A stretch of 64,000 nucleotides of DNA from an uncultured Acidimicrobiales bacterium (lineage in GTDB: Bacteria > Actinomycetota > Acidimicrobiia > Acidimicrobiales > DATKAS01). A model generated the notes under the pieces. That model ran no database searches, was not told where the DNA came from, and was given only the letters and a program-made list of their open reading frames with translations. Both the position numbers and the translations under genes were made by a program. The stretch is from positions 2,003-66,002 of the forward strand of contig CAVSDE010000002.1 of the NCBI GenBank assembly GCA_963726695.1, in the 5' to 3' direction. This document shows, in pieces, positions 1,766 to 32,969 of this stretch (its first letter is position 1; every line of letters begins with the position of its first letter).

Positions 1766-2982
1766 TCACCGGCGTTCAGGAGTGAACGCCACCGGCATGT
1801 GACGCACACCGGCGATGAAGCTCGAAGCCAGCAGCTCGGGCTCGCCGGCCGGCGCCAGATCGGGACAGCCGGGTGAGCAGCTCGCGCAGCATCGCGGCGA
1901 TCTCGATGCGGGCGACGTGCATGCCGAGGCAGAGGTGCGGGCCGCCGCCGCCGAACGCCATGTGCGGGTTCGGTTGCGGCCGACGTCGAAGCGGTCGGGG
2001 TCGGCGAACACATCTCCGTCGCGGTTGCCGGAGCCGTAGAAGACCATCATCTTGTCGCCCGCCGCGATCGGCTGGTCGCGGATCACGGTGTCCTCCATCG
2101 CGGTGCGCCGGAAGTGCGACACCGGTGACGTGTAGCGGAGCATCTCCTCGACCGCCGTCGGAAGCAGGCCGTCGAGATCGGCCTGCAGCCGCGCTCGCTC
2201 GTCGGGGTGGTCGAACAGCAGCTGCATGCCCGGCGGCCAGCAGGTTGCGCGTGGTGTCGCCGCCGGCGTTGACGAGCAGCAGGAAGAACCACTGGAGCTC
2301 GGCGTCGGTGAGCCGGTCGCCGTCGACCTCGGCCTCGACGAGCATCGAGGCGATGTCGTCTCCGGGCTCGTCGCGCTTCGCCTTGCCGACCTCGTCGGCG
2401 TAGTTCAGCATCTCGATCATCGCGGCCATGCGGCGCTCCGGCGATGGCGCACCGCGTCGTCGGTGGTGTGCATGAGCTCGGTGAGCTCGTAGAGGTGCTC
2501 GCCGTCCGCGCGCGGGATGCCCATCAGCTCCGCGATGAGACCCGACGGCAGCCGCCCGGCGACGTCCGCGACGAGGTCGCACTCGCCTCGTTCGATGACG
2601 TCGTCGACGATCTCACGGGCCAGCTCGTCGATGCGGTTGCGGAGGAGCTCCGCGTTCTTCGGCGTGAACCCCCGGCTGACGAGCAGCTTGAATCGGTCGT
2701 GCTGCGGCGGATCCATGTTCAGCATCATCTGGCGCGACGCCATGAGGCCCATCTCGTCGCGTCGCTCGACCATCGTGCCCTTGCGCGTACGAGCTGAAGA
2801 GCCGCGGCTGACGGCTCACCATGCGGATGTCGTCGTACTTGGTGATCGCCCAGAAGTCCTGGCCCTGCGGGTAGGGATGGCGGAAGACGGGCGCGTGCTC
2901 GCGCAGCCACGCGTACTGGTCCCATGGGTGGCCGTGAGCGAACGCGGCCGCGAGAGATCAGGTCGATGTCGCTGGCATCCAT
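1766..2982 (-). pseudogene. Cytochrome P450 (CYP124/125/142-like), at least 6 frame switches
   Basis: MDASDIDLISR.., MDPPQHDRFKLLVSRGFTP, LLLVNAGGDTTRN, EEMLRYTSPV and the haem loop FGGGGPHLCLG are all present. They are spread over ORFs 2725..2982, 2613..2822, 2417..2773, 1776..2582 and 1766..2227 in three frames. Confidence 0.85.
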
Positions 2983-3327: not shown

Positions 3328-3717
3328 GTGCGGCCCGTGGGCAGCTTCGACGACGGGATGCGCGCCCGAGCAGAGGTGTTGGGCGCCGAACACGTCCGCA
3401 GATCGAACGCCGACGCGACCGATCTCGACCGCCCGTTCCTCGAGTGGATCACCACCCACGTGTGGGGTGACCTCTGGGCGGACGCGACACTCGACCGCAA
3501 GACCCGCAGCATGGTCACGATCGCGATCCTCGCCGCGCTCGGTCGCGAGGAGCTGGCGTTGCACCTACGGGCGTCGGCGACGACCGGAGTCACCGACGCA
3601 GAGCTCGCCCAGGTGTTGCAGCACGTCGCGATCTACGCCGGCGTGCCCGCAGCGAACCACGCCTTCCAGACCGCAAAGACCGTGCGACCTCCCGCGACCC
3701 AGGTGACGGACACATGA
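3328..3717 (+). CDS. pcaC: 4-carboxymuconolactone decarboxylase
   Basis: 129 aa of the AhpD/CMD type (..WGDLWADATLDRKTRSMVTIAILAALGREELALHLRA..IYAGVPAA..). Its stop overlaps the start of pcaH. Confidence 0.85.
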   Translation: MRPVGSFDDGMRARAEVLGAEHVRRSNADATDLDRPFLEWITTHVWGDLWADATLDRKTRSMVTIAILAALGREELALHLRASATTGVTDAELAQVLQHVAIYAGVPAANHAFQTAKTVRPPATQVTDT

Positions 3718-4399
3718 CCATCGTCTACACACCCCGTGCCCACGAGGATCACCCTCCGTTCCTCTACTCCGACTACAAGGGCACGCGGAAGCGATCGCCC
3801 GAGATGGGCCTGATACCCATCGTGCAGTCGCTGTCCGAGATCACCGGACCCGGTCCGGCATGGACCGAGCTGTCCGAGGACGACGCGGACCTCACCACCA
3901 ACGCGGGAACAGGGGCGAGGCGATCGGGCAACGGTCGATCATCACCGGGCGCGTGCTCGACCAGCACGGTGAGGCCGTCCCGGACGTGCTCATCGAGATC
4001 TGGCAGGCGAACGCGTGCGGCCGGTACATGCACTGGCGGGAGGTCGACTTCCCCGCGCCGCTCGACCCGAACTTCCTCGGAGTCGGGCAGTGCCGCACGA
4101 ACGATGACGGCGAGTACCGCTTCCTGACCGTCAAGCCGGGTCCGTATCCGTGGGGCAACCACTACAACGTGTGGAGGCCCGCACACATCCACTTCTCGCT
4201 GCTCGGACCGGCGCTGACCACGCGCCTCGTGACGCAGATGTACTTCCCCGACGATCCGCTCTTCGAGTTCGATCCGATCTTCCAGTCGGTGCCCGAGCAC
4301 GCGCGCGGACGAATGGTCTCGACGTACGACCATGAGGTGACGATGCCGAACTGGGCGCTCGGCTACCGGTGGGACATCGTGTTGCGAGGCGCGGAGTGA
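3714..4399 (+). CDS. pcaH: Protocatechuate 3,4-dioxygenase beta subunit, one frameshift near 3910
   Basis: N-terminus in ORF 3714..4127 and the remainder in ORF 3860..4399. Motifs: LIEIWQANACGRYMH, GVGQCRTNDDGEYRFLTVKPGPYPW, RPAHIHFS. Confidence 0.85.
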
Positions 4400-5004
4400 C
4401 CGACCGCGAGACCCTCCGCGAGACCCGCGGCCCCACCCCGAGCCAGACCGTGGGGCCGTACTTCACGATGCGCCTCGCGGGTGAGGGCGAGAACGTGCTC
4501 ACGCAGCCCGAGACGATCGGCGAGCGCATCCGCATCGAGGGGTTCGTGTTCGACGGAGACCGCAAGCACATAGAAGACGCACTGCTCGAGCTCTGGCAGG
4601 CGAACGCGGCCGGCCGGTACAACCATCCGGCCGACGACCGCGACGACGTTCCCCTCGACCCCGAGTTCACGGGCTTCGGTCGCTGCGCGAGCGACTTCAC
4701 GACCGGCGCGTTCTCGTTCCTGACGATCAAACCCGGACCGGTCCCGCACCCGATCGGAGGCATGCAAGCGCCGCACGTCTCCCTCATCGTGCAGTCCCGC
4801 GGCATGCTCGATCCGACCTACACCCGCATCTATTTCGCCGACGAGGTCGAAGCCAACGCTTCCGACCCTGTCCTGGCGACGGTCCCCGAGGCTCGACGGT
4901 GGACGCTCATCGCCGAGCGAGTCGACGACGGCGGATCGGTGCCCGTGTACCGGTTCGACGTCCGCTATCAGGGCGACGACGAGACCGTCTTCTTCGACGT
5001 GTAG
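4396..5004 (+). CDS. pcaG: Protocatechuate 3,4-dioxygenase alpha subunit
   Basis: GTG 4396 overlaps the pcaH TGA (GTGA). Motifs: PSQTVGPYF, LELWQANAAGRYNH, FLTIKPGPVP. Confidence 0.85.
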   Translation: MTDRETLRETRGPTPSQTVGPYFTMRLAGEGENVLTQPETIGERIRIEGFVFDGDRKHIEDALLELWQANAAGRYNHPADDRDDVPLDPEFTGFGRCASDFTTGAFSFLTIKPGPVPHPIGGMQAPHVSLIVQSRGMLDPTYTRIYFADEVEANASDPVLATVPEARRWTLIAERVDDGGSVPVYRFDVRYQGDDETVFFDV

Positions 5005-5007
5005 GCG

Positions 5008-6000
5008 ATGCCCCTCTATCCCGGCTTCTCGACACAAGCGATGGATGCGATCTGGAGCCCCGAGTCGCGCATCGCCGCGATGCTCGAGGTCGAGGCCGCG
5101 GTCGCGTACGCGCAGGGCGAGGCCGGCGACATCCCGAAGACGGCGGCGATGGCGATCGCCGTCGCGACGGCCGAGCCGGTGCCCACGAGCATCCTCGCGG
5201 AGGGCTGGACTGCAGGAACGCCCGTCCTTCCGCTGCTCGACGCGTTGCGCTCGCGGCTCGATCCCGCGGCGGCCGAGCACCTTCACCGTGGACTCACCAC
5301 ACAAGACGTCGTCGACACCGCGGCGATGCTCCTCATGCGCGACGCGACAGGCGAGCTCCGAAGGCTCGGCGAAGCCGAGGCACGCACGCTCGTGTCGGCA
5401 ACCGAGCGATTCGGAAACCGCTCCACGACGGCGCGCTCATTCCTCCAGCCGGCCGAGCAGACCACGTACGGGTTCCGGTTCGGGCGGTGGGCCGCGGCGC
5501 TCGACAGGCAGCTGCGTGCGCCGGTCACCTTCCCGGTGCAGCTCGGAGGGCTCATCGGCGACCGCCGAGAGCTAGGGCCCGAGGTCGTCGCGATGACGTC
5601 GCTCGGGCTCGAGCTCGATCATGTCCCCGCGGCGTGGCACACCGACCGCACGCCGGTCGTCGACCTCGTCACGCTTGCGCTTCGCTTCGCGCAGTGGGCC
5701 GAGAAGGTGGCAGGCGACATCGCGCTGCTCTCGGCGTTCGGAGAGGTGGCCACCCGCGCCGGCGGCTCGAGCGCCGCCGCCGGCAAGCAGAACCCGATCG
5801 ACGCCATGCGGGCGATGGCCGCGGCCGAGGCGTGCGCCGGGGTCGCGTCCATCGTGCTCACCGGCAAGCCGCACGAGCTCGAGCGAGGGCTCGGCTCCTG
5901 GCACGCCGAGTGGTTCGCCCTCCCACTCGTGTTCATGACGGCAGGTGCCGCGATGGAGGCCGTGGGTGCCTCGCTCGCGTCGCTGGAGGTGCTCACGTGA
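5008..6000 (+). CDS. pcaB: 3-carboxy-cis,cis-muconate cycloisomerase (short, 330 aa)
   Basis: Fumarate-lyase-superfamily features (TTQDVVDTA, signature-like GGSSAAAGKQNP). It sits between pcaG and pcaD. Confidence 0.75.
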   Translation: MPLYPGFSTQAMDAIWSPESRIAAMLEVEAAVAYAQGEAGDIPKTAAMAIAVATAEPVPTSILAEGWTAGTPVLPLLDALRSRLDPAAAEHLHRGLTTQDVVDTAAMLLMRDATGELRRLGEAEARTLVSATERFGNRSTTARSFLQPAEQTTYGFRFGRWAAALDRQLRAPVTFPVQLGGLIGDRRELGPEVVAMTSLGLELDHVPAAWHTDRTPVVDLVTLALRFAQWAEKVAGDIALLSAFGEVATRAGGSSAAAGKQNPIDAMRAMAAAEACAGVASIVLTGKPHELERGLGSWHAEWFALPLVFMTAGAAMEAVGASLASLEVLT

Positions 6001-6779
6001 CCGACACCGTGACGGTCTCGGACGGCACCGCGATCGGGGTTGCCGTCCAGGGCGACGAGAGCGCGGCCCCGCTGCTTCTGATGCATTCGCTCGGCTGCGA
6101 CCACCACATGTGGGACCACCAGCTCGGCGTGTTCAGTCGCTCCCACCGCGTCGTGGCGGTCGACATCCGCGGCCACGGTGTGAGCGGCGCGCCTCACGGG
6201 GACTACACGCTCGAGCGGCTCGGTCAGGACGTGGTCGACGTCGCCGACGCGCTCTCCATCGACCGCTTCGACTACTGCGGGCTCTCCATCGGCGGCCTCA
6301 TCGGCCAGTGGCTCGGGCTGCACGCCGCTGCCCGCCTGCGCTCACTCACGCTCTGCAACACCGGTGCGAAGATCAGCGACGTCGAGCGGTGGAACGAGCG
6401 CATCGACGTCGCCCGCACCACCGGGATGGCGGCGCTCGTGGACGCCGTGATCGACCGCTGGTTCACCCCTGAGTTCGCAGACGCGCATCCCGAGGACATC
6501 GAACAGTTCCGGTCGCAGCTGCTCGCGACCGACCCGCAGGGCTACGCCGGGTGCTGCGCGGCCATCCGCGGCGCGGATCTCCGCGACGACGTCCACGGGA
6601 TCGTCACCCGAACCCTGCTCGTCGCTGGCACCCGTGACATCGCCACTCCACCGGAGCTGACCGACCACCTGCACGCGCAGATCGAGGGCAGCCACGTCGT
6701 CTCACTCGAAGCCGGGCACCTGAGCAACGTCGAGCAGCCCGACGCGTTCACCGACGCGCTCACCGGCTTCCTGGCATGA
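5997..6779 (+). CDS. pcaD: 3-oxoadipate enol-lactonase
   Basis: GTG 5997 overlaps the pcaB stop. Alpha/beta hydrolase with LLLMHSLGCDHHMWD, nucleophile elbow GLSIGG and C-terminal EAGHLSNVEQP. Only the last 261 codons of ORF 4899..6779 are used. Confidence 0.8.
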   Translation: MTDTVTVSDGTAIGVAVQGDESAAPLLLMHSLGCDHHMWDHQLGVFSRSHRVVAVDIRGHGVSGAPHGDYTLERLGQDVVDVADALSIDRFDYCGLSIGGLIGQWLGLHAAARLRSLTLCNTGAKISDVERWNERIDVARTTGMAALVDAVIDRWFTPEFADAHPEDIEQFRSQLLATDPQGYAGCCAAIRGADLRDDVHGIVTRTLLVAGTRDIATPPELTDHLHAQIEGSHVVSLEAGHLSNVEQPDAFTDALTGFLA

Positions 6780-7948
6780 CGCGGACGCAGGTTGTGATCG
6801 TCGGCGGCGGACCGGCGGGCCTGATGCTCGCCCATCGGCTGCATCGCTCCGGACACGAGGCCGTCATCCTCGAACGCCAGACCCGCGACTACGTCATGGC
6901 GCGGATCCGCGCGGGGGTCCTCGAATGGGGATCGGTCGACATGCTCCGCGACGCCGGCCTCGGCGATCGGATGATGCAGGAAGGCTTCGTCCACGACGGC
7001 GTGGGGCTCTCGTTCCTGGGACAGCTGCTTCGCGTCGACTTCACTCGTCACACCGGCAAGTCGGTGATGGTCTACGGCCAGACCGAAGTCACCAAGGACC
7101 TGTACCGCGCGCTCGATGCCGAAGGCGTGACGATCGTCGACGAAGCGCAAGACGTGACACTGCACGACGTCACGACCGACGCGCCGCACGTCACGTACTC
7201 CAAGGACGGCGCGACTCATCGCGTCGACTGCGCATACATCGCCGGGTGCGACGGCTACCACGGGGTGAGTCGGCCGACGATCCCGAAGACCGTCCTGCGG
7301 GAGTACGAACGCGAATACCCGTTCGGCTGGCTGGGCGTGCTGTCCGAGACCCCGCCGGTCGATGACGAGCTGATCTACGCGCATCACGAACGGGGTTTCG
7401 CTCTCTGCTCGATGCGCCACCAGATGCTCAGCCGGTATTACGTGCAGTGCCCGCTCGACGACACACTGGACGACTGGCCCGACGACCGGTTCTGGGACGA
7501 GCTCCGCCGCCGGCTCCCCGACGACGTGGCGGCTCGCCTCGTGACGGGCGCCTCGATCGAGAAGTCGATCGCGCCCCTGCGGAGCTTCGTCGCCGAGCCA
7601 CTTCGATACGGGCGACTGCTGCTCGCGGGCGACGCCGGCCACATCGTCCCGCCGACCGGAGCGAAGGGCCTGAACCTGGCGTTCTCGGATGTGCACTACC
7701 TGTTCGAGGGGCTCGACGACGCGCTCTCGGGTCGCACGACCGCAGGCATCGACGAGTACTCCGATCGGGCGTTGCGCCGCGTGTGGCAGGCCGTGCGGTT
7801 CTCGTGGTGGATGACGACGCAGCTGCACCGCTTCCCCGACGCGGGGCCGTTCGGCCTCAAGATGCAAGAGGCCGAGCTCTCGAACCTCGCTCGATCCGAA
7901 ACCGCCCAACGGCTGATGGCCGAGAACTACGTCGGCCTGCCGATCTGA
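6776..7948 (+). CDS. pobA: 4-hydroxybenzoate 3-monooxygenase
   Basis: 390 aa with GGGPAGL FAD motif, IAGCDGYHGVSR, GRLLLAGDAGHIVPPTGAKGLNLA and C-terminal AENYVGLP. The start overlaps the pcaD stop. Confidence 0.9.
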   Translation: MTRTQVVIVGGGPAGLMLAHRLHRSGHEAVILERQTRDYVMARIRAGVLEWGSVDMLRDAGLGDRMMQEGFVHDGVGLSFLGQLLRVDFTRHTGKSVMVYGQTEVTKDLYRALDAEGVTIVDEAQDVTLHDVTTDAPHVTYSKDGATHRVDCAYIAGCDGYHGVSRPTIPKTVLREYEREYPFGWLGVLSETPPVDDELIYAHHERGFALCSMRHQMLSRYYVQCPLDDTLDDWPDDRFWDELRRRLPDDVAARLVTGASIEKSIAPLRSFVAEPLRYGRLLLAGDAGHIVPPTGAKGLNLAFSDVHYLFEGLDDALSGRTTAGIDEYSDRALRRVWQAVRFSWWMTTQLHRFPDAGPFGLKMQEAELSNLARSETAQRLMAENYVGLPI

Positions 7949-8763
7949 TGCCAGCGCTCGAGATCAACGGCACGACGATCTGGTACGAGCGGGATGGCGC
8001 CGGCCCGCCGTGCCTCGTGCTGCACGGTGGTCTCGGTGTCGACCACACGCTCTATCGCAGGACATTGCAACCTCTCACCGGTCAGCTCGAGCTCGTCTTC
8101 TTCGACCACCGTGGCAACGGTCGATCCGGACGGCCGCCGCTCGACACCATCACGATCGAGCAGCTCGCCGACGACGCGGCAATGGTGGCTCACGACCTCG
8201 AGCTCGATCACACACTGGTCTTCGGGCACTCGTACGGCGGCTTCGTCGCGCAGGAGCTCACATTGCGTCATCCGGAACTCGTGCGAGGGCTGATGCTCGT
8301 CGACACCACTCCAGGCCAGCTCGGCACCGGCGAGACCGAAGACGACTACCGCGGACCTCCTCCCCCTCCCGAGTTCCTCGACCTCGTGTCGCAGCTGCCC
8401 GAGACCGACGCGGAGCTCGCAGACGGCATGACCGAGCTCTTGCCCTTCTACCTGCACCACAGCGACGTGGCGGATGCGGAGGCCGCGTTCGAAGGAACGA
8501 TCTTCTCTTGCGACGCGATGATGCAGGGCTTCATCGCACTCAGGGGGTGGAGCGCAGTCGATCGCCTCGCGACGATCGAGGCGCCGACACTCGTATTGGG
8601 CGGCCTCCACGATCTGTTCACGGCAGCGCCGCAGGCGGACCGGATCGCCGATCGCATCCCGCACGCCGACCGCGTCCTGTTCGAACACAGCGGGCACTTC
8701 CCCTGGTTCGACGAGCCCGAGGCGTTCTTCACGGTGGTCAACGCTTGGCTGGACCGACTCTGA
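7948..8763 (+). CDS. Alpha/beta hydrolase (proline-iminopeptidase-like fold)
   Basis: ATG 7948 overlaps the pobA TGA. Motifs: LVLHGGLG, DHRGNGRS, nucleophile elbow GHSYGG, C-terminal SGHFPWFDEP. Confidence 0.75.
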   Translation: MPALEINGTTIWYERDGAGPPCLVLHGGLGVDHTLYRRTLQPLTGQLELVFFDHRGNGRSGRPPLDTITIEQLADDAAMVAHDLELDHTLVFGHSYGGFVAQELTLRHPELVRGLMLVDTTPGQLGTGETEDDYRGPPPPPEFLDLVSQLPETDAELADGMTELLPFYLHHSDVADAEAAFEGTIFSCDAMMQGFIALRGWSAVDRLATIEAPTLVLGGLHDLFTAAPQADRIADRIPHADRVLFEHSGHFPWFDEPEAFFTVVNAWLDRL

Positions 8764-8770
8764 GTGAGCG

Positions 8771-9568
8771 TCAGATGAAGAACAGGGTCGCGCCGAGGAC
8801 GAGCAGCCCGGCCCCGTAGAGCTGCTCGAGGCGGCCGGCGTTCATCCGCAACGCCGTCTTGGCACCGAGGCTCGACAGCGGCACCGAGGCGAGCCCGAAG
8901 ACCAACGTCACCGTCCAATCGATGTGGCCGAGCGCTGCGTGCACGATCGTGCCGGGGATGGCGAGGACTGCCGCGACCGCCAGCGAGCACGACAGCGCGG
9001 TCTTGATCGGGAGCTTCAACGCGGCGAGGTAGAGCGGCACGAGCAGAAAGCCGCCGGCGTTCGCGAGCAGCCCGGCGAGGAACCCCACGGCGAGCGCGAC
9101 CGCAGCCATGCGTAGCCCCCGTCCGGACACGTCGTCGCGCACGACCTCGGGGTCGTCGGGCCTCAGCAACACCTTGAGACCGATGAGGGCGATGACCACA
9201 TCGGTGACCTTGACGAGCGATTCACCGCCGACCCAGCGGCTCGCGTAGGCGCCGATGATCGTCGCCGGCACGCCGAAGGCGATGCTCCACCGAACGACTC
9301 GAGGGTCGCTGATGCCCAACCGGCGATACCGGTTGTACGCGACGAGGGTGCCGGGGATCGTGGCGGGCAGCGGGGACGCGACGGCGATCAGCGGCGGCAC
9401 ACCGATCGCGGCGAGCAGCGGCGTCGCGATCGCTGACCCGCCTTTGCCGAAGAGGCCTCCGAGGTAGCCCACTCCCGCGCCGATCAGCGCGATCAGGACC
9501 CAATGCACATTCCCATGGGACCACGGGTCGCATGGTGCGGTCCAAGACAATGTTTCTCTGTTTTCCAT
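8771..9568 (-). CDS. TauE/SafE family sulfite/anion exporter-like membrane protein
   Basis: Multi-TM protein with GYLGGLFGKGGSAIATPLL and a repeated GxxAGxLxNAGG motif. The likely true start is GTG 9508 (VHWVLIALIG..). Confidence 0.8.
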   Translation of the reverse strand: MENRETLSWTAPCDPWSHGNVHWVLIALIGAGVGYLGGLFGKGGSAIATPLLAAIGVPPLIAVASPLPATIPGTLVAYNRYRRLGISDPRVVRWSIAFGVPATIIGAYASRWVGGESLVKVTDVVIALIGLKVLLRPDDPEVVRDDVSGRGLRMAAVALAVGFLAGLLANAGGFLLVPLYLAALKLPIKTALSCSLAVAAVLAIPGTIVHAALGHIDWTVTLVFGLASVPLSSLGAKTALRMNAGRLEQLYGAGLLVLGATLFFI

Positions 9569-9585
9569 AGTCTCTAACTATGGAA
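9563..9585. promoter_or_regulatory. Inverted repeat TTCCATAG-N7-CTATGGAA in the divergent TauE/LysR region (LysR T-N11-A type box)
   Basis: Perfect 8-bp arms read directly. The arms contain the CAT/ATG of both ORF-track start codons. Confidence 0.4.
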
Positions 9586-10446
9586 GTCCACCAGGTTCGC
9601 TACGCGCTCGCCGTCGTCGATGAGGGCACGTTCACGGCGGCGGCGGCGGCGTGCTTCGTCGCACAACCCTCGCTTTCTCACGCCGTGCGAGCGCTCGAGC
9701 GTGAGCTCGGCGTCGAGCTCTTCCGCCGGGTCGGCCGCCGACCCACACTGACCTCCGCAGGCGAGGCGTTCGTGCCTGCGGCTCGCGAGGTCATGCGGGC
9801 GCTCGACACCGTTCGAGCCGAAGTCGACGCGGTGTCAGGAGTGGTCGCCGGGCATCTCGACCTCGTCGCGCTGCCGACGCTGGCGGTCGCGCCCGTCACG
9901 CCGATGGTCGGTGCGTTTCGTGCCGCCCATCCCGCAGTGACGGTACGGCTCGGCCATCCCGAAGGCCCCACAGCGCTCATCGACGCGGTTCGGTCAGGAG
10001 ACAGCGAAGTCGGCATCACCGAGATCCCTGTGGCCGCGGCACGGATCAAGGCGATCCCGCTCGGCCGTCAGCAGCTCGTCGCGATCCTTCCCCCGGGCTC
10101 GCCACCGGTGGCAGTGCTCCGACTCGAAGCGCTCGCGCGCTTTCCTCTCGTCGCGCTCAGAGTCGGCGGATCGACGCGCGACGTGCTCGACGCCGCATTC
10201 GACGCCGCGGGGGCGGTGCCGGCGATCGCTGTCGAGACCGATCAGCGCGAAGCCATCGTGCCGCTCGTGCTCGCGGGAGCGGGGGCAGCGGTGGTGCCCG
10301 CGCCGATGGCCGAGGTCGCGCGACAGCAAGGCGCAGTGGTCGCTCGTCTGAGCCCCGCGCTCTGGCGCAACCTCGGACTCATCCATCGTGACGCGACGCT
10401 CTCCCCCGCGGCTCGCGCGTTCATCGCTCTCGCCCGAGGTCAGTAG
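9580..10446 (+). CDS. LysR family transcriptional regulator
   Basis: N-terminal wHTH MEVHQVRYALAVVDEGTFTAAAAACFVAQPSLSHAVRALE followed by a LysR substrate-binding domain, 288 aa. Confidence 0.9.
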   Translation: MEVHQVRYALAVVDEGTFTAAAAACFVAQPSLSHAVRALERELGVELFRRVGRRPTLTSAGEAFVPAAREVMRALDTVRAEVDAVSGVVAGHLDLVALPTLAVAPVTPMVGAFRAAHPAVTVRLGHPEGPTALIDAVRSGDSEVGITEIPVAAARIKAIPLGRQQLVAILPPGSPPVAVLRLEALARFPLVALRVGGSTRDVLDAAFDAAGAVPAIAVETDQREAIVPLVLAGAGAAVVPAPMAEVARQQGAVVARLSPALWRNLGLIHRDATLSPAARAFIALARGQ

Positions 10447-12021
10447 AGCCGCTCGATCGTCGTATCGACCCACACGTCGAGCAGCGTCGGTGTCGGACTG
10501 TCGAACGACTCGACGAGCGCAGGCTCGAGTCGCTCCGCCAGATCGATGCGTTCAGCGGCGAGACCGAACCCGGTCGCGATGCTGACGAAATCGAGGCCGG
10601 GAAGGTTGACGCCCGGCAGCGTCTCGATGCCCATCGCGAGCCCGAACGCCTTGAGCGCCGAGTAGCCACGGTTGTCGAGGATCACGAACGTGATGGGCAG
10701 ACGATGCTCCGCCGCGGTCCACAGCGCCTGGATCGAATACAGGCTCGAGCCATCGCCGAGCAAGCAGACGATCCGGCGCCCTGCGTCCGCGAGCGCGATG
10801 CCGACGGCGGCGGGCATCGCCCACCCGAGTCCCCCGCTTGCGCCGCAATAGAAGCCGTCGGTGATCCGGATGGGAAGGTGATCGTGCATCGCGTTGCGAT
10901 GCGACGGCGCCTCCTCGACGATCGCCGCGTCTCTCGGCATCACGCGGCTCAGGGTGTGCAGGACGAACGCTCCGGACATGGGAGCGGTCGGCGGTGGACT
11001 CGCGAGCGGCACGCGACCGGCGGGCGTGCGGTCGGCGGGCGGTCACGCGTCCCAACAGATCAGCGATGCCGCGACGCAAGGTGGTGAGGATCGCTGCGCC
11101 AACCGGAGCGAACGCCGCCGCGTCCGGGTCGTCGGTGAGCAAGAACAGCATCGTGCCGTCCGTGACCACGGGACCGTCGGAGCGCACGTGATAGGTGAAC
11201 ACCGGCGCGCCCAGCACCACGACGACGTCGTGGCCCTCGAGCTGTGCAGCGAGCGGGCGCCGCGAAGGAGTCAGGAAGCCGGCGAAGGCAGGGTGGTCCT
11301 CGGGGAAGCTGCACCGACCCGAGAGCGGACTCACCCACACGGTCGCGCCCGTGCGTTCGGCGAGCGCGACCACGAGATCCCCCGCTCCGTCGCGGTCCAC
11401 GCCGGCGCCGACGACCAGCGCTGGGCGCACGCTGTCGTTCAGGGCCGCCGCAACCGCACCCAGCCCCTCGGGCTCGCCGACGAAGCCCCCGCGCACCTCG
11501 CGCCGCGCGACTGGGCTCGCGTCGGCATCCCAGTCGTCTTCGGGAATCGAGACGAAGGTCGGGCCCTGTGGTGGCTGCATCGCGGTGTAGTAGGCACGGG
11601 CGATCGCGGCGGGCACATCGGCTGCTCGGGCTGGTTCCACGCTCCACTTCACATACGGCTTCGGCAGCTCGGTCGCCTGCTCGGAGAAGAGGTAGGGCTC
11701 CCCGGTGAGCAGCTCGCGCGCCTGCTGACCGGCCGTGATGACGAGCGGGGTCTGGTTGCGCATCGCCGTGAAGATGCTGCCGAGCGCGTGTCCCACCCCC
11801 ACTGCGGAGTGGAGGTTGACGAAGGAAGCATTCCGCGTCGCTTGCGCGAACCCATCCGCCATGGCGACGGCGGATGATTCCTGCAGGGCGAGCACGTAGC
11901 GGAAGTCAGCAGGCGCATCCCTGAAGAACCTCAGCTCGGTCGAGCCCGGGTTCCCGAAGATCGTGGTCATCCCGAGCTCGCGCATCAGCGCATGCGTCAC
12001 GGAACGAACGGTCTCACTCAC
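10440..12021 (-). CDS. mdlC: Thiamine-diphosphate enzyme, benzoylformate decarboxylase-like, one frameshift near 11030
   Basis: 527 codons. N-terminal TPP-pyrimidine domain (FGNPGSTELRF) in ORF 10552..12021. C-terminal TPP-binding motif GDGSSLYSIQALWTAA..ILDNRGY in ORF 10440..11012. Confidence 0.8.
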
Positions 12022-13202
12022 AAGCGCCGGCTCTTCGCGTCCCAGTTGCGCTCGAGGTTGTCGATGAGCGCGGGGCTGTAAAGGCAGTACGCCTGCTCAC
12101 GCGAGTAGACGCTCATGTAGCGACGAAACGCATCGAGCGGCTCGTGGCCGACGCGTAGCGCCTTGCGATTCGCGACGAGGCTCGTCATGCCTGCACTCGT
12201 CAGCTCGCCCGCCGCTCGCTCAACTGCCGCGGCCATGTCGGCGCTCGTCACGACCTCGCCGGCGAGCAATCGGCCTTCGGGCGTGTCCGCGTGGAAGACG
12301 TAGTTGAAGAAGATCGCCTCACGCGTGAGCCGCTCGCCCACGAAGCGGGGCAGCCGGAGGTTCGCCGAGCCCGGGATGATCCCTTCCTTGCGGGCGGGGA
12401 GGTTGAAGTACGAGCCGCTCTCGGCGATCACGCGATCCACGACGAGGAGCCACTGACAGGCGCCACCGATGGCAAACGTGTCGACTGCGGCGATCCAGGG
12501 CTTCTCCCGCCGCTGCTCGAGGTCCGGCGTGTCGAAGTCGCCCACGCTGTGACCGCGGTACAGCTTGCTGACGCCGCCGAGCTCGCGCTCGATCATGAAC
12601 TCGACCAACGAGATCTTCCCGTAGTAGAGGTGCGTCAGGTTGATGCCGGCACCGAAGACGCGCCGGCCTTCGTACTTCGGATGGGTCGCGGGCGCGCCGC
12701 GGACGACGCCTACCTCGATCGCATCGTCGAGCAGGACCAGATCGACGGCGACCTCGAACGCGCCCGTCGACACGTCATCCTCCGCGTTGAGGAACGCATG
12801 GTTCTGGATCGTGACCCGCCCGATCGAGCCGTCGCGCTCGACGAGGATCGGGCCGAGGTCGACGTGCCCTGTTCGGCGAAAGCCGTCGATGTGAGCGAGG
12901 GCCTCGGGACGCGGCTGCGACATCGAGTGCATGAGGTGCAACCCGATGCGAGGCCTGGCGAGAACGTGCGAGACGAAGACGCCTTGGTCGATCTCGAGCC
13001 CGGCCTTCTGCTTCTGAGGGAGCTCACGCTCGGCGTCGATGTCAGCGCGGGTGGGCACGAGACCGGGGTAGCGCTCGGCGGCGAGGTACACGAGGTCGGA
13101 GACCCGGAGGTCGAGACGGAGGCCGTCCGTGAGCTCGTCGTAGATCGAGTCGATGTGCTCGTGGAGGTGCTCGTCTCGAGCCGATCGCAGATCAGTGGTC
13201 AC
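12018..13202 (-). CDS. Crotonase-fold protein with an approximately 130 aa N-terminal extension, DpgC-like (arylacetyl-CoA dioxygenase-like)
   Basis: Enoyl-CoA hydratase core (LNAEDD.., RVFGAGINLTHL, FAIGGACQ). GTG 13202 overlaps the ligase TGA, and its own TGA overlaps the decarboxylase GTG (GTGA twice). Confidence 0.6.
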   Translation of the reverse strand: MTTDLRSARDEHLHEHIDSIYDELTDGLRLDLRVSDLVYLAAERYPGLVPTRADIDAERELPQKQKAGLEIDQGVFVSHVLARPRIGLHLMHSMSQPRPEALAHIDGFRRTGHVDLGPILVERDGSIGRVTIQNHAFLNAEDDVSTGAFEVAVDLVLLDDAIEVGVVRGAPATHPKYEGRRVFGAGINLTHLYYGKISLVEFMIERELGGVSKLYRGHSVGDFDTPDLEQRREKPWIAAVDTFAIGGACQWLLVVDRVIAESGSYFNLPARKEGIIPGSANLRLPRFVGERLTREAIFFNYVFHADTPEGRLLAGEVVTSADMAAAVERAAGELTSAGMTSLVANRKALRVGHEPLDAFRRYMSVYSREQAYCLYSPALIDNLERNWDAKSRRL

Positions 13203-14710
13203 GTGCCGCCCACTCTCGATTCGACACCGGCCCAATACGGCTCGCGCAGCTCGCGCTTCAAGACCTTCCCCGCGCCGGACTTCGGCAGCGGCTCGGCGCG
13301 CAGCTCGATCCGCTTCGGCACCTTGTAGCCCGCGATCACTTGCCGGCAGTGCTCGATGAGCTCACGCTCGGTGATATCGCCGCGAGGGATGACGACGGCA
13401 TGGACGGCTTCGCCCCATTGAGGATCGGGCACGCCGAACACCGCCGCCTCGAGCACCGCGGGATGGCGATAGAGCACGTCCTCCACTTCGGTGCTGTAGA
13501 CGTTCTCTCCGCCGCTCACGATCATGTCCTTCGCGCGATCGACGAGGTACACGTACCCCTCGTCGTCGAGGTAGCCGAGATCGCCGGAGCGGTACCAGCC
13601 GTCGACGAGTGCGGCCGCGGTCTGCTCGGGCTTGTTCCAGTACCCCACCATCACGTTGTCGCCTCGGATCACGACCTCGCCGACTTCGCCTGTCGGCATC
13701 GCACTGCCGTCGGTACCGACGATGCGGATCTCGACGCCGACCGCGGGCTGACCGCACGACCGAGCGCGGGGCGAGTCGAGCCATTGCTCCTCACCGCGGA
13801 ACGTCGTCGCGATCGGGGCAGTCTCGGTGGTGCCGTACATCTCGAGCAGCTCGGCCGCGGGGAAAGCGACATGTGCTCGTCGCAACGTCTCGGTCGCGAC
13901 CGGCGACCCGCCGTGGAAGATCGCTCTCAAGCTCACGACATCGCGCGGACGGGCGAGCTGCTCCTCGTTGAGCGCGGCGAGCATCGTCGGCACGAGCAGA
14001 GTCGCCGTCACGCCATGGCGCTCGATGAGGTCGAGGGCCATCGCAGCCTCGAATGTCGGCAACACGACCTGACGGCCTCCCGCCCACACAGTCGGAAGGA
14101 CGGCGATCGACCCCGCGGCGTGGAACAGCGGCGCGGCGATGAGCCAGCACATCTCCGGACGGAACGGGGAGAACGCTTGGAAGTGCAGCGCGTTCGCGAT
14201 CAGGTTGCGATGCGTGAGCATCACGCCCTTCGACGCGCCGGTCGTCCCGCCTGTGTAGAAGAGTCCCGCGAGCGTCGTGTCGGGGACGTCGTCGGCGAGA
14301 CCGGCGGGCTCGGCACCGGTGAGCAGCTTCTCGTATCCGTCCTCGAGGTCGATCACATGCTCGACGCAGGGCGGAAGCCCGTCGATGACCCGGTTCGTGA
14401 AGACCACCTTCGTGTCGGAGTCGGCGAGCGCGTAGTTGAGCTCGGCGTCGGTGTGGCGCTGGTTGAGCGGGACGAGCGCCATGCCGTCTCCGGGCACCGC
14501 TTGGTAGAGCTCGACGTAGCGATGGCAGTTCGCACCGACGACCGCAACGCGATCTCCGTCGCGTAGACCGAGCGAACGCAACGCGCCGACGAGCCGCCGG
14601 CACCGCTCGAACGTCTCGGCATAGGTGAGCTTGGTGTCACCGCAGACGATCGCGGCCTGATGAGGAGCGATCTGGTTGGCCCGACGCAGCGGTCCGATCA
14701 TGGTCGTCAT
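13199..14710 (-). CDS. AMP-dependent acyl-CoA synthetase/ligase
   Basis: AMP-binding motifs LFYTGGTTGASKGV, YGTTE, SGDLGYLDDEGYVYLVDRAKDMI and final PKSGAGKVLKRELR. The start is taken at MTTMIGPL. Confidence 0.85.
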   Translation of the reverse strand: MTTMIGPLRRANQIAPHQAAIVCGDTKLTYAETFERCRRLVGALRSLGLRDGDRVAVVGANCHRYVELYQAVPGDGMALVPLNQRHTDAELNYALADSDTKVVFTNRVIDGLPPCVEHVIDLEDGYEKLLTGAEPAGLADDVPDTTLAGLFYTGGTTGASKGVMLTHRNLIANALHFQAFSPFRPEMCWLIAAPLFHAAGSIAVLPTVWAGGRQVVLPTFEAAMALDLIERHGVTATLLVPTMLAALNEEQLARPRDVVSLRAIFHGGSPVATETLRRAHVAFPAAELLEMYGTTETAPIATTFRGEEQWLDSPRARSCGQPAVGVEIRIVGTDGSAMPTGEVGEVVIRGDNVMVGYWNKPEQTAAALVDGWYRSGDLGYLDDEGYVYLVDRAKDMIVSGGENVYSTEVEDVLYRHPAVLEAAVFGVPDPQWGEAVHAVVIPRGDITERELIEHCRQVIAGYKVPKRIELRAEPLPKSGAGKVLKRELREPYWAGVESRVGGT

Positions 14711-14732
14711 GCGCGGCGACCGTACCTCTGGC

Positions 14733-15927
14733 TCAAGCGCCTCTGCCGAACAGGTCGAGCTGGGGCGTTTCGGGCTGCGACACGGAGCGCTCGGCACGGA
14801 AGTGCTTGCTCAAGGTCTGCATCTGCCCCTGGTAGTTCGAACCGACGTCGTCGCCGTACAGCTCGTCGGGCTCGGCGAGCATGCGCTCGAACGTGAGCTT
14901 GCACACGCCTTGCCCCTGCTCGATCATGAACGGCACGTCGTGCGCGCGCACTTCGAGCGCAGCCCGCGAGCCGAGAAGCAGGCCATCGCGCGAGAAGCCG
15001 AAGCCCGGATCGAAGAACCCCGCGTAGTGCGTGCGCAGCTCGCCGCTCGTCGGGTCGAATGCCGTCATCTCCGCGGCAAGGCTTGGCGGCACGCGCACGC
15101 TCTCCTCGGACAGCAGCAGGTAGAAGCGCTCGGGGTCGAGGACGATGCCGCGCTCGTTCCTCACTCGTCACACGCTCCCAGTAGTCATCGACGCGATGCG
15201 AGCCGATCGCGGACATGTCGAGACCGGGCGTGTTCAGCTTCGCCCGGAAGCCGACGTGGCCACGCTTGTCGCCGCGCAGATCGAGGCTGAGGAAGAGGCC
15301 GTCGGACACAGCCAAGTCGTCGGTCGGCACGGGCTGGCCGCCACGGAAGAGCAACGGGCTGGCGCGGTGCACCTCGACCAGCTCGCCGTCGGTCAGCGGG
15401 GCCCGCCCGACGATGAGACGCAGCTGGTTCAGCGACAGCCCCTCCTCGACCTCGACCGCGAACGACAGGGGCACGACCTCGAGGTAGAGCGGTCCGCGGT
15501 AGCCGTCGGCGATCTCGTCGAACCGGTAGCTGCCGTCGGTGACGACACGGGTGAACACGTCGAGTCGACCCGTCGAGCTCTTGGGGTTGGTCTTCGCCCT
15601 CAGGCCCTCGGGCAGGGCAAGGTGCTCGGCGAGCGGGATGAGGTATGGACGGTTCGGCTCGAGGACTGCTCCCCCGCGCAGGTCGAGCTCGTCGATGATC
15701 AGCGGTCGCATCTTGCGGTCGACCGAGTCGACGCCGGGCAGGAAGCTGCACCGCAGCCGGAATGCCCGTGGCCCGAGCCGCAGGTCGAGGCTCGCCGGCT
15801 GCACACGGTCTTCCGGGACCTTTTCGCCAGCGGCGTGCACGTAGCCGAGCGAGATGGCCTCGCGGATGAGCTGCGACGGCAAGACGCCGCTTGCCCCGTC
15901 GCGTAGCCCCCGCAACGTCAGCGTCAC
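14733..15927 (-). CDS. DCD-family 2'-deoxycytidine 5'-triphosphate deaminase-like protein (two dUTPase-fold halves), one frameshift near 15165
   Basis: N-terminal part in ORF 14707..15927 (ASLDLRLG.., KSSTGRLDVFTRV) and C-terminal part in ORF 14733..15164 (YAGFFDPGFG, ALEVRAHDVPF). Confidence 0.7.
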
Positions 15928-15934
15928 CCGTGGA

Positions 15935-16786
15935 TCATTGCATGCCCTTGCGAATCGTCATCCCGAACGAGGTGATCACGTAGCCGTCCATCCGCCGGTT
16001 GAGGTGGACGTTCGTCCACGGCTCGGTGTCGACGTGGCGATCCTCGGGCCGGTCCCCGAGCGTGAAGTTCAGCGTCATCGTGTGACCCTCGCTCGCGAGC
16101 TCACGGCGCAGCCGCTCGAGATCGCGCCGCCGGTACAGCACGGTCTCCCCCGCGTCGATCGTCGCGAGGTTGCAGCACACGTTGAGCTCGGTGGTGTGGA
16201 CGGCAATCCCGCCGGGACGCAGCACCTCCATCTGGCGGTGGATGAACCGCAGCCCGTCGTGCAGGGTGCCGAGGTGCTCGAACGCGCAGGACGACCAGCT
16301 GAAGTCGTAGCCGTGGAGGTCGTTGGGGATCTCCCGCATGTCGACCGGCCGGAAGTCGGCGTTGGCCATGAACATCTCGGGCGTGCAGAGGCGTTCGTCG
16401 CAGGCCGCCGCGAGGTCCTGAGCCCACTGCGCGGCGCCGCTCCAGTGGTCGGTCTCCGCCGCAGCCGAGGGAAGGTCGGTGACCGTCACTCGACACCCCT
16501 GGCTCACGAGATACGAGGCGATCGGCTCGCGCCCGACCCCGAAGCCGATGCCTCGCGCCCCGGGCACGATCGCCCCCCCGGACTCGAGCGCTTCGAGGAT
16601 GTAGCACCACTCCCAGAGCTTGCGATGCATCAGCACCGGGCTCTGGACGCGTGCACACCACTCGACGAACTTCGGGTCGGCGATCTGCGCCGCGGTGCAC
16701 GCCTGGGACACTGGAGCGACGAAGCTCGGCGCGCCCTCCTGATCGGGGCGGGCCGCGAGCTCGTCGGTGCGCTCGTGCCCGAGCAT
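15935..16786 (-). CDS. Class I SAM-dependent methyltransferase
   Basis: HRKLWEWCYILEAL.. followed by the GIGFGVGREP motif-I region and VLRPGGIAVHT. 283 aa. Confidence 0.75.
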   Translation of the reverse strand: MLGHERTDELAARPDQEGAPSFVAPVSQACTAAQIADPKFVEWCARVQSPVLMHRKLWEWCYILEALESGGAIVPGARGIGFGVGREPIASYLVSQGCRVTVTDLPSAAAETDHWSGAAQWAQDLAAACDERLCTPEMFMANADFRPVDMREIPNDLHGYDFSWSSCAFEHLGTLHDGLRFIHRQMEVLRPGGIAVHTTELNVCCNLATIDAGETVLYRRRDLERLRRELASEGHTMTLNFTLGDRPEDRHVDTEPWTNVHLNRRMDGYVITSFGMTIRKGMQ

Positions 16787-16843
16787 CCGATGGAAGGCGC
16801 GTCGGGCGCCGCCTCTTCACCCCCGCGACCGACGCCACAGGGC

Positions 16844-17353
16844 ATGATCGCGCTCGTGGCCACCTGGACCCACTACTGGAAGCGCGAGATGGTCGAACAG
16901 GGGGAGGGCACGTTCGTCGGTCACTCGGCATCGGGGGTTTTCCGGCGGAGTGGAGTGCAGCCCGGCGACCGCATGTACGTGATCTCGGTCGCCGGCGGCC
17001 GGCTGCGCATCGTGGGCCGCCTCGATGTCGAGGACATCGTCACTCAGAAGCGGGCCGACGAGCTCTTCGGCCGCCCCATGTGGGAGGGCGCCGAGCACGT
17101 GATCGCCCGCCCAGGGTCGGGGACACCCCGCCGCACCGATGCCTACCTCGCCGCTCATGGGCTGGTCGATGTCGAGTTCGTCGGTGCGGACGGCGACATC
17201 GTGCCGCCGAAGCTGAACCTGGCAGGACACCCCGATGTGCTGTGGCTGCAAGGCGTGCGCGAGATCACCGCGAGGACAGCCCTGCTGTTCGACCAGGTGC
17301 TCGGCGTCAAGACGACCGAGGACATCGTGGAGCGCGGCTCGGACTCGAGCTAA
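16844..17353 (+). CDS. Hypothetical protein (169 aa)
   Basis: Only the last 169 codons of ORF 15854..17353 look protein-like (MIALVATWTHYWKRE..GDRMYVISVAGGRLRIVGRL..). It is divergent from the methyltransferase and no family was recognised. Confidence 0.5.
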   Translation: MIALVATWTHYWKREMVEQGEGTFVGHSASGVFRRSGVQPGDRMYVISVAGGRLRIVGRLDVEDIVTQKRADELFGRPMWEGAEHVIARPGSGTPRRTDAYLAAHGLVDVEFVGADGDIVPPKLNLAGHPDVLWLQGVREITARTALLFDQVLGVKTTEDIVERGSDSS

Positions 17354-18691
17354 GCGGCGAGTAGGTGTTCGAGGTAGACGCTGAGTGCGTAGGTGGTGAG
17401 TCGTTCGCCGCCGCTGGCGGCACGCGCGGTGTCGGGGGTGATGCTGCGGGGTGGGTCGGGGAGCTGGTCGATGAGGGGCAGCGTGGCGAGGTCGGGTGGT
17501 CGCCCGCCGGTGGTGTCGCCTCGCGTGGTGCCGCCGAGGCAGCGTTCGCCTCGCCAGAACGTGTAGGTCTGGTCGCCGTGGGTGGTGATGGTCCAGCCGT
17601 GGTCGTGGATCTGGCGGTGGTGGTAGCCGCACAGCAGCACGAGGTTGTCGAGGTCGGTGGGGCCGCCGTGACGGTAGAAGCGGACATGGTGCGCGTCGAC
17701 GTAGCGGGTCTGGGTGCATCCGGGGAACTCGCAGCCGGTGACTCCGGCACGGAACCGCAGCGCTCGCCGTTGATGCCGTGACGCCGTGCGGACTTCGTTG
17801 CCGAGCCACAACGGCACCCCGTGGTGGTGGACCAACATCTGCACACTCGCCCCGCACATGATGCGGGCGAGCTCGGGATCGGAGAGCCGCTGCCCGGTGG
17901 CGGGCATGAAGCAATGCGACCCCAACCCGACCGGCAGGCGCTCGTCGAAGTCGAAGCCGAGCACCCGGGCCAACGTCGCCAGGTCGACCGAGACCTGGAC
18001 GCAGAACTTCTCGTCACCCCGATCCCGCAGACCCGCCCCGGCGGCGGCGTCGAGCATCGCCTGCGCGAACCGCCCCGCGATCTCGTTCGCGTTCAGCCGT
18101 CGGCGCTGCTCCAGATCGGTCGGGTCGAGATCCTTCTCGCCGGCCGCACGAGCCGCCGCCCACGCCTGCCGCGAACAGCGCTCCGGTGACCGCGTCGAGC
18201 GCCAAGTCGTACCGGTCCCGTCCGAGGTCGTCGACCCAATGCTTCTCCCAGAAGTCGACGTCGGGATCGGGCCCCGGCTCGGGCTCGTCCTGCTTGCGAC
18301 AGTCGCGGTACTTCGCGAAGATCCGCGCCGCCTGGGTCGGGACCGTGTCACGCACGACCTTCGCGACCAGCGCCTCGTTGTCGGGTGTCGCGACCCGCGC
18401 CGCCATCGCCAACACCCCGACCGAGAGCTGCCCGGCCAACGCGTCCGCGTGGATCGACCCGACATTGGCGAGCCGCAACGCCGCCGTCTGGAACGCGCGG
18501 CCCTCGGCCAACGTGACCTTGCCCCGCACCGACAACCAGTGCGCCAACGACCGATACCCCTCGCCCTGCCAGCCGTCGAGCCCGTCCAGCTCGGCCAGAC
18601 ACTCCACGACCTCCGCGCCCAAAGCGTGCTGCTGCGCGACCAGGACCCCGATCCGCGCCTCCAGCTCCCTCGCCCGCTCGGACTCCCGCAT
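17350..18691 (-). CDS. DUF222-type HNH endonuclease (REP13E12-like family), one frameshift near 18185
   Basis: N-terminal DUF222-like part in ORF 18014..18691. C-terminal HNH part (CEFPGC..DAHHV..NLVLLCGYHHRQIH) in ORF 17350..18726. Confidence 0.85.
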
Positions 18692-24761: not shown

Positions 24762-24763
24762 TC

Positions 24764-32914: not shown

Positions 32915-32936
32915 CAACATGACGTTTGTCATGTTG
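32915..32936. promoter_or_regulatory. Inverted repeat CAACATGAC-N4-GTCATGTTG, candidate TetR operator
   Basis: Perfect 9-bp arms centred in the MFS/TetR divergent spacer. Confidence 0.45.
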
Positions 32937-32969
32937 CGACAGCACAGGTCCCGATGGGACACTCGTCCT

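Follow-up and report, generated by a model that had tools for sequence, protein, structure and literature searches.

What reaction sequence may be served by three chained genes that lie close to a protocatechuate pathway in the genome of an uncultured Acidimicrobiales bacterium? The genes occupy positions 10440 to 14710 of a stretch of 64,000 nucleotides (contig CAVSDE010000002.1 of assembly GCA_963726695.1, about 68% G+C), which was analyzed as a whole and is termed the window below. Judged from their sequences and surroundings, the three genes (the triad) probably form a single translationally coupled operon, whose products would shorten the side chain of an arylacetic acid by one carbon, for degradation. 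The proposed enzymes are a coenzyme A (CoA) ligase, a dioxygenase resembling DpgC and a decarboxylase dependent on thiamine diphosphate (ThDP), encoded as follows:

13199..14710, minus strand: acyl-CoA ligase of the ANL superfamily, FadD- or feruloyl-CoA-synthetase-like, 503 aa; the proposed arylacetate-CoA ligase
12018..13202, minus strand: DpgC-like dioxygenase, 394 aa; crotonase fold with an N-terminal helical domain
10440..12021, minus strand: ThDP-dependent benzoylformate decarboxylase (BFD, EC 4.1.1.7); reading frame broken near 11042

A first-pass annotation of this DNA had described the three minus-strand genes as chained by GTGA overlaps, and both overlaps (13202-13199 and 12021-12018) were confirmed by direct reading of the sequence. 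The ligase gene starts with ATG at 14710. The GTG start of the DpgC-like gene (13202-13200) lies over the TGA stop of the ligase gene (13201-13199), and the GTG start of the BFD gene (12021-12019) lies over the TGA stop of the DpgC-like gene (12020-12018). A promoter and terminator scan of positions 9400-17000 found none, as expected at 68% G+C in an actinobacterium.

The resemblance of the middle protein to DpgC, which had been proposed together with a DpgC-like N-terminal extension, is borne out over both domains. The protein matches the NCBIfam DpgC model at 416.7 bits (E=1.2e-124, model positions 27-407 of 412), while the second-best crotonase model reaches E=9e-14 and ordinary enoyl-CoA hydratase models about 1e-13. 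In a phmmer comparison against the PDB, DpgC (2NP9/5KAG, the Streptomyces toyocaensis protein) scored 332 bits (E=4e-98), with residues 6-385 of the query aligned to residues 54-431 of the chain, as compared to 41.6 bits for the best crotonase or enoyl-CoA hydratase other than DpgC. The two-domain architecture of DpgC, an N-terminal helical domain followed by the crotonase domain, is thus present over the full length.

The residue-level comparison was made on sequence alignments to PDB DpgC, the numbering of which was anchored on the deposited variants 2PG8 (R254K), 5KAJ (A319C) and 5KAH (V425T); the O2-pocket positions A319 and V425 were deduced from the latter two mutant structures. Residues E189, I235, L237, R254, G296, Q299, A319, E322 and I324 of DpgC are identical in the window protein, in which E189, I235, R254, G296 and Q299 correspond to E141, I187, R206, G247 and Q250. 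We take Ile235 and Gly296 to form the oxyanion hole, and Glu189, Arg254 and Gln299 to act in catalysis or recognition. The sole change among the known catalytic and O2-pocket residues is the replacement of V425 by leucine; in the hydrophobic O2 pocket (L237, A319, I324, V425) three residues are therefore identical and the fourth is conservatively replaced. Among 82 aligned family members, E189, R254, G296 and Q299 are invariant (82/82), and the catalytic and O2-pocket positions as a whole are invariant or nearly so. The DpgC-like protein is therefore presumed, from this alignment, to convert an arylacetyl-CoA to an arylglyoxylate and CoA with O2 and no cofactor. An AlphaFold2 model built from a 15-sequence alignment was poor, with a mean predicted local distance difference test score of 52.9 and values below 50 in the catalytic domain.

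For the third gene, the initial description of a ThDP enzyme with the length and motifs of BFD holds with respect to identity, yet not with respect to a single open reading frame (ORF). The span 10440..12021 comprises 1582 nt in two frames: the N-terminal two thirds (TPP_enzyme_N and TPP_enzyme_M) are encoded by the ORF at 10552..12021, and the C-terminal third (TPP_enzyme_C) by the ORF at 10440..11012, such that all three ThDP domains are found. With the NCBIfam BFD equivalog PRK07092/NF005485 (cutoff 493), the N-terminal fragment by itself reaches 505.6 bits, and the C-terminal fragment 229.6. The enzyme groups with BFD, as had been anticipated, and not with acetolactate synthase or Xsc: PDB BFDs match at 433-466 bits, as compared to about 98.7 bits for acetolactate synthase. 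Counted on an alignment to the Pseudomonas putida-type BFD 9V67, S26, E47, H70, H281, A460, F464 and the GDG...N455 motif are conserved, and the BFD catalytic residues are all present across the two translations. Presumably Ser26, His70 and His281 are catalytic, Glu47 activates the cofactor, and Ala460 and Phe464 line the pocket.

The break itself raises the possibility that the pathway is dead in this genome, the BFD gene being a genuine pseudogene and the triad a decaying remnant. Relative to L002, a 94%-identical metagenomic relative in which the gene is intact with 526 codons, the window carries one extra C near 11042, by which the gene is split after its middle domain; the insertion is also seen relative to L003, a closely related long-read metagenome-assembled genome (MAG). 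However, in a comparison over 7.9 kb the window carries further single-base insertions at 15149 and 16810, and these genes bear indels in L003 too, which differ from those of the window. Fused and fragmented ORFs occur throughout the window, a pattern which fits homopolymer-type assembly error, and both halves of the BFD gene still look strongly coding, with high third-position GC in their called ORFs, and retain all of the catalytic residues. Because of the similar indels in neighboring genes, the indels particular to L003 and the fused or fragmented ORFs across the window, the frameshift is most likely a long-read assembly error, and decay of the triad appears improbable. Split or fused genes elsewhere in the window were seen at 24428-25336, 32919-34319 and 1766-2773; the kinds of gene so affected in the window include the BFD gene, a dCTP-deaminase-like gene, cytochrome P450 fragments, a fusion of TetR_N with a short-chain dehydrogenase/reductase (SDR) and a fusion of AMP-binding_C with MDMPI_N.

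The first gene of the operon encodes an AMP-dependent acyl-CoA ligase, in agreement with the earlier assignment: its product of 503 aa contains the Pfam domains AMP-binding (278.7 bits) and AMP-binding_C. The best NCBIfam model is PRK06187 (468 bits, cutoff 476), and the nearest solved structures are those of feruloyl-CoA synthetase (8WEV/8WEU, 325 bits), an activator of aromatic acids. The ligase does not belong to the PaaK subfamily (TIGR02155) but is FadD- or feruloyl-CoA-synthetase-like.

When one genome per species was scanned, 255 relatives of the DpgC-like protein were obtained, and the locus statistics given here refer to the best 80 of the 255. Almost all of these 80 loci derive from MAGs, assigned to Acidimicrobiales and other Acidimicrobiia, Thermoleophilia including Solirubrobacteraceae, other Actinomycetota, Dormibacterota, Chloroflexota, Anaeromyxobacteraceae and Acidobacteriota; the window itself shows about 95% DNA identity to an Acidimicrobiales MAG. 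Close metagenomic relatives number in the thousands, with the top 120 clusters at least 70% identical and many labelled DpgC by JGI, and the entire DpgC-like family is small when clustered at 50% (231 clusters, E<=1e-30). An enzyme that forms an acyl-CoA is encoded within 3 kb of the DpgC-like gene in 56 loci, and several of the remaining loci are on short contigs. The kinds found within this distance are FadD-like ligases (38), PaaK-family ligases (14) and members of the indolepyruvate:ferredoxin oxidoreductase (IOR) family (5). In 38 loci a ligase of the same cluster as that of the window precedes the DpgC-like gene. BFD is present in 21, where the triad is kept as a unit within varied flanking contexts, and an oxidoreductase of the GMC family is found in 16.

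Clustering of the neighboring ORFs, followed by annotation of the clusters, distinguished six contexts, A to F. Context A, the window type found in Acidimicrobiia, combines a FadD-like ligase, the DpgC-like protein and BFD, with flanks that vary among helicases, SbcC, SDR or enoyl-CoA hydratase proteins and amine oxidase. Context B, from Solirubrobacteraceae-type MAGs (L030-L032, L035-L038, L040, L042, L045, L069 and L071, at about 6600-16500 in each), lacks BFD and comprises a protein resembling flavin-dependent or Baeyer-Villiger monooxygenases with a SnoaL domain, a ligase, the DpgC-like protein, a 461-aa protein without known function, a GAF regulator, a GMC oxidoreductase and an aldehyde dehydrogenase. 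In context C the DpgC-like gene adjoins that of a phenylacetate-CoA ligase of the PaaK family (TIGR02155, up to 593 bits), sometimes together with a GMC oxidoreductase. In context D (L051, L059, L060 and L064) the DpgC-like gene is directly preceded by an IOR-family gene of 1200 aa, which ends just before position 10001 of the locus; this arrangement suggests conversion of an arylpyruvate to arylacetyl-CoA and on to the arylglyoxylate without a free-acid step. Context E contains branched-chain-type ABC transporter genes. Context F, represented by three cultured actinomycetes (L070 Streptomyces, L072 Kutzneria and L081 Amycolatopsis), contains genes for nonribosomal peptide synthetases (NRPS), P450, thioesterase and aminotransferase. 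In a neighbor-joining tree, which carries no bootstrap support and is indicative only, the crystallized DpgC is an outlier, the proteins from NRPS contexts form a clade of their own, and the window protein falls inside the radiation associated with ligases. The PaaK-family and IOR-family neighbors in other lineages point independently to arylacetyl-CoA substrates.

The proposed route begins with the ligase, which would convert free arylacetate, ATP and CoA to arylacetyl-CoA. The DpgC-like enzyme would then hold the thioester in its crotonase oxyanion hole, form the enolate at C-alpha and add O2 without metal or cofactor, to release the arylglyoxylate and CoA, from which BFD would produce the aryl aldehyde and CO2. 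DpgC reportedly also turns phenylacetyl-CoA into phenylglyoxylate, slowly, according to work by Chen et al. in PNAS in 2001. Oxidation of the aldehyde to the benzoate would require an aldehyde dehydrogenase whose gene lies at some other site; the product in this lineage would probably be 4-hydroxybenzoate, to be passed through the adjacent PobA-PcaHGBCD route to beta-ketoadipate. A three-step module is favored because the triad is translationally coupled and its co-occurrence is conserved, because the catalytic machinery of both DpgC and BFD is fully retained, because DpgC-like genes are repeatedly paired with three kinds of enzyme which share the product arylacetyl-CoA, and because biosynthetic partners are absent among the window ORFs scanned. 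The sequence of arylacetate, CoA ester, arylglyoxylate and aryl aldehyde suggested by the first-pass annotation is therefore supported, in that the DpgC and BFD identities hold and acyl-CoA-forming neighbors recur; none of the three checks named in advance as able to refute it did so. Comparative genomics supplied the gene identities, the conserved catalytic residues, the operon structure and the conserved synteny.

The genes around the triad bear on the direction of the pathway and on its substrate. They are arranged in the window as follows, the pca positions having been obtained by tblastn:

3328-3717, plus strand: pcaC (NCBIfam best match, 147 bits, below cutoff)
about 3749-4399, plus strand: pcaH (NCBIfam best match, 265 bits, below cutoff)
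4417-5004, plus strand: pcaG (passes the NCBIfam equivalog, 218 bits, cutoff 126)
5008-6000, plus strand: pcaB (NCBIfam best match, 202 bits, below cutoff)
5997-6779, plus strand: pcaD (passes the NCBIfam equivalog, 293 bits, cutoff 256)
6776..7948, plus strand: pobA, 4-hydroxybenzoate 3-monooxygenase (equivalog TIGR02360, 632.1 bits, cutoff 538.7)
7948..8763, plus strand: alpha/beta-hydrolase paralogous to PcaD, encoded at the end of the pca-pobA operon (located by tblastn with Abhydrolase_1 of L001)
8771..9568, minus strand: TauE/SafE-family membrane protein (Pfam PF01925 on the L001/L002 orthologues; tblastn 100% at 8774-9568)
9580..10446, plus strand: LysR-family regulator (Pfam HTH_1 and LysR_substrate)
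14733..15927, minus strand: dCTP-deaminase-like gene of the PRK07559 family, 400 aa (Pfam DCD_N/DCD/DCD_C), frameshifted near 15149

The complete pcaHGBCD set (3328-6779) and pobA are present as had been claimed, with pcaH, pcaB and pcaC slightly or moderately under their cutoffs, and the window thus encodes the protocatechuate branch of the beta-ketoadipate pathway. The genes pcaC, pcaH, pcaG, pcaB, pcaD and pobA form one tightly packed plus-strand block with the hydrolase gene, whose Pfam annotation was taken from the L001 orthologue (69% identity over 271 aa, 7948-8760 in tblastn). The distance between pobA and the triad had been given as 1.7 kb and is in fact 2.5 kb (7948 to 10440), a space occupied by the genes for the hydrolase, the TauE-family protein and the LysR protein. 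The LysR gene is convergent with the BFD gene, overlaps its 3' end and is divergent from the TauE gene; its position is kept in the closest relatives, and its product is a candidate regulator. The divergent starts of the TauE and LysR genes are only about 11 bp apart as called in the window and 63 bp apart in L002. A role for the TauE/SafE-family protein as an organic-anion permease for aromatic-acid uptake is speculative.

On the other side of the triad, the 1-bp insertion at 15149 in the dCTP-deaminase-like gene is seen against both L002 and L003; the intact L002 orthologue scores 444.9 bits and is separated from the ligase gene by a gap of 22 bp. This gene was considered as a fourth pathway gene, but is probably a lineage-specific neighbor, since no linkage to the triad is seen beyond the closest clade. 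Upstream of it are two conserved proteins at 15935-16786 and about 16817-18200, both on the minus strand, which in relatives comprise 283 and about 443 aa, have no Pfam or NCBIfam match and occur in the same order in L001-L007. A P450 gene divergent from pcaC (1766-2773, minus strand; 19335-20546 in L003) matches an ancestral CYP125 reconstruction at 422 bits. It was rejected as an aromatic O-demethylase that might feed 4-hydroxybenzoate, being CYP125/CYP124-like, of the lipid or steroid hydroxylase type. Elsewhere in the window, the regions 56171-58579 (minus), 60031-61242 (plus) and 48702-50516 (plus) hold a kynureninase gene accompanied by two small genes in the same orientation, a gene for an FrhB-like protein of the F420 type, and a second ORF resembling aromatic hydroxylases of the FAD_binding_3 type (604 aa, possibly a fused frame).

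Since a true PobA and the protocatechuate pathway adjoin the triad, conversion of 4-hydroxyphenylacetate to 4-hydroxybenzoate is a reasonable guess; as the substrate, 4-hydroxyphenylacetate is the leading candidate, though a doubtful one. What we infer from these gene identities and arrangements is that the enzymes act on the arylacetate class, that they do so in catabolism, and which arylacetate they use.

Several points weigh against this interpretation. With 416.7 bits, the DpgC-like protein does not reach the cutoff of the NCBIfam DpgC equivalog (NF042432, 530 bits). As compared to canonical DpgC, moreover, A298C, which adjoins the catalytic Gln299, occurs in all 82 family sequences, most of which also show G297A, L300W, A320R, K428N and V429L; with A298C, G297A, L300W and A320R so near the active site, the substrate or even the product could differ. 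The protein may thus catalyze another reaction (thioester hydrolysis, hydration, or oxygenation of a CoA ester other than an arylacetyl-CoA), with the triad serving some other pathway that forms a 2-oxo acid, as might also be supposed from the many family loci which lack BFD and have partners that are FMO-like, of the GMC family or without known function. This is judged unlikely, for all residues known for DpgC catalysis and O2 binding are retained family-wide, the decarboxylase of the triad is closely related to known BFDs and keeps A460 and F464 of the aromatic pocket, and the PaaK-family and IOR-family neighbors elsewhere specifically imply arylacetyl-CoA. In the window protein the family-specific residues are C249 (Ala298), W251 (Leu300) and R271 (Ala320), which are candidate specificity determinants.

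To be counted with these points are the interrupted BFD frame and the lack of a cultured representative of the window protein's subfamily among the 80 loci. An aldehyde dehydrogenase gene was found by tblastn neither in the 64-kb window (aldehyde dehydrogenase query, E<=1e-3), as had been noted from the outset, nor in linkage at the other triad loci. The pobA and pca genes lie within 10 kb only in the closest relatives (L001-L007 and L016, at least 80% protein identity) and are absent from more distant triad loci with full 10-kb flanks; this adjacency, being confined to one close clade, could be inherited synteny. The linkage to aromatic catabolism in other genomes thus takes another form than had been expected: pobA and pca are near the triad only in the closest clade, whereas DpgC-like genes of other lineages have PaaK-family, IOR-family, GMC and aldehyde dehydrogenase neighbors. 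As for the substrate, Arg254 and Glu189 of DpgC reportedly contact a meta-hydroxyl, as described by Fielding et al. in 2007, and their retention would suit 3-hydroxy-, 3,4-dihydroxy- or 3,5-dihydroxyphenylacetate at least as well as 4-hydroxyphenylacetate. Assignment of a substrate from the pocket residues was rejected as too speculative without a reliable structure model.

The triad might instead be biosynthetic and furnish a building block (arylglyoxylate, aryl aldehyde or benzoate) for some secondary metabolite or cofactor, in the way that Ken4-6 and VemC/E/F serve the formation of 3,5-dihydroxybenzoate and PglA that of phenylglycine. The described uses of DpgC-type enzymes found in the literature are all biosynthetic, and the family members of L070 Streptomyces, L072 Kutzneria and L081 Amycolatopsis adjoin NRPS, P450, thioesterase and aminotransferase genes. 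The tree, however, places such NRPS-context proteins in a clade separate from the window protein. Pfam scans of the ORFs of the triad region and some 40 further window ORFs revealed no type III polyketide synthase (PKS), modular PKS, NRPS or aminotransferase partner, the CoA ester would be provided by a ligase acting on the free acid, and the neighbors are the catabolic pobA and pca genes. A biosynthetic role is accordingly the least expected of the explanations considered, and very unlikely. A full-text literature search, in which few subscription journals were covered, found no catabolic DpgC-like enzyme and no ligase-fed catabolic cascade. The earlier statement that DpgC chemistry is established in glycopeptide biosynthesis and undescribed in catabolism is consistent with this search, yet it had missed the precedent of cascades of DpgC, BFD and aldehyde dehydrogenase in kendomycin and venemycin biosynthesis.

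For the degradative reading, the chemistry of each step is known, and the coupling of DpgC to BFD has already been proposed in biosynthesis. What appears new is the feeding by a ligase, the catabolic neighbors, the absence of a type III PKS, and the existence of a large subfamily in uncultured soil bacteria. It is conceivable, at somewhat less than even chances, that DpgC-type dioxygenases are the key enzyme of a widespread and unrecognized aerobic, CoA-dependent alpha-oxidation of arylacetates to arylglyoxylates. Arylacetic acids arise from the breakdown of phenylalanine, tyrosine and tryptophan, from flavonoid cleavage, from auxin and from styrene. If the proposal is true, the substrates would include phenylacetate, hydroxyphenylacetates and possibly indoleacetate, and the route would be found in uncultured soil Acidimicrobiia, Thermoleophilia, Dormibacterota, Chloroflexota and Myxococcota. 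The route would give arylacetic acids a new entry into central aromatic catabolism in abundant uncultured soil bacteria, as a third aerobic strategy besides the paa epoxidase and the homogentisate/homoprotocatechuate pathways, and as an O2-using counterpart of the anaerobic PadBCD system. The role of cofactor-independent oxygenases would then widen from specialized biosynthesis to bulk carbon turnover. Natural DpgC variants paired with different ligases would also be of biocatalytic interest, since inexpensive arylacetates might be turned into arylglyoxylates and aryl aldehydes with O2 only.

Among the known systems, DpgC of glycopeptide antibiotic biosynthesis (EC 1.13.11.80; PDB 2NP9) shares with the window protein the two-domain architecture, the oxyanion hole, the Arg254/Glu189/Gln299 set and the O2 pocket. 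The window protein is about 45-50% identical to it, is shorter by about 50 N-terminal residues, stands on a separate branch of the family tree and carries the changes A298C, G297A, L300W, A320R, V425L, K428N and V429L. Its substrate would come from a ligase, whereas that of DpgC comes from the DpgA/B/D type III PKS system. No association with DpgA (type III PKS), DpgB/D or a glycopeptide or NRPS cluster was found among the window ORFs scanned, where the neighbors are the ligase, BFD, LysR and pobA-pca genes and are thus catabolic. In kendomycin biosynthesis, Ken4/Ken5/Ken6 (Kmy16/15/14) have been proposed as a cascade of a DpgC homologue, a BFD homologue and a benzaldehyde dehydrogenase, which leads to a 3,5-dihydroxybenzoate starter (PMC8708025), and a cascade of DpgC, BFD and aldehyde dehydrogenase has been proposed for the same starter with VemC/VemE/VemF of venemycin (PMC5132015). 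As in these modules, the DpgC homologue of the window adjoins a BFD homologue, for conversion of arylacetyl-CoA to the aryl aldehyde. The kendomycin and venemycin modules are, however, fed by a type III PKS, possess a dedicated benzaldehyde dehydrogenase and reside in a PKS cluster, whereas the window has a CoA ligase and the pobA-pca context, and neither an aldehyde dehydrogenase nor, among the ORFs scanned, a type III PKS was found in it. PglA, the "Phg dioxygenase" of pristinamycin L-phenylglycine formation, has likewise been proposed to carry out an O2-dependent oxidation of phenylacetyl-CoA at C-alpha; it is biosynthetic, its product is described as benzoylformyl-CoA, for which a thioesterase is needed in addition (PMC7089894), and it is not known to belong to the family of the window protein.

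The decarboxylase compares with MdlC of Pseudomonas putida (PDB 1BFD) and with BFD of Mycobacterium smegmatis (4Q9D), with scores of 433-466 bits, the same domains and the same key residues. In the mandelate pathway the arylglyoxylate is delivered by mandelate racemase and mandelate dehydrogenase, whereas in the window, where no mdlA/B-type genes were seen among the genes scanned, it would come from the DpgC-type dioxygenase. The anaerobic alpha-oxidation of phenylacetate in Thauera and Aromatoleum employs phenylacetate-CoA ligase, the phenylacetyl-CoA:acceptor oxidoreductase PadBCD and the phenylglyoxylate:acceptor oxidoreductase PadEFGHI. It follows the same logic as the route proposed here, from arylacetate via arylacetyl-CoA and arylglyoxylate to a C6-C1 product. 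The anaerobic route relies on a molybdenum enzyme, oxygen from water and a ferredoxin-type 2-oxoacid oxidoreductase that leads to benzoyl-CoA, whereas the route of the window would combine an O2-dependent, cofactor-free dioxygenase with a non-oxidative ThDP decarboxylase and lead to the aldehyde.

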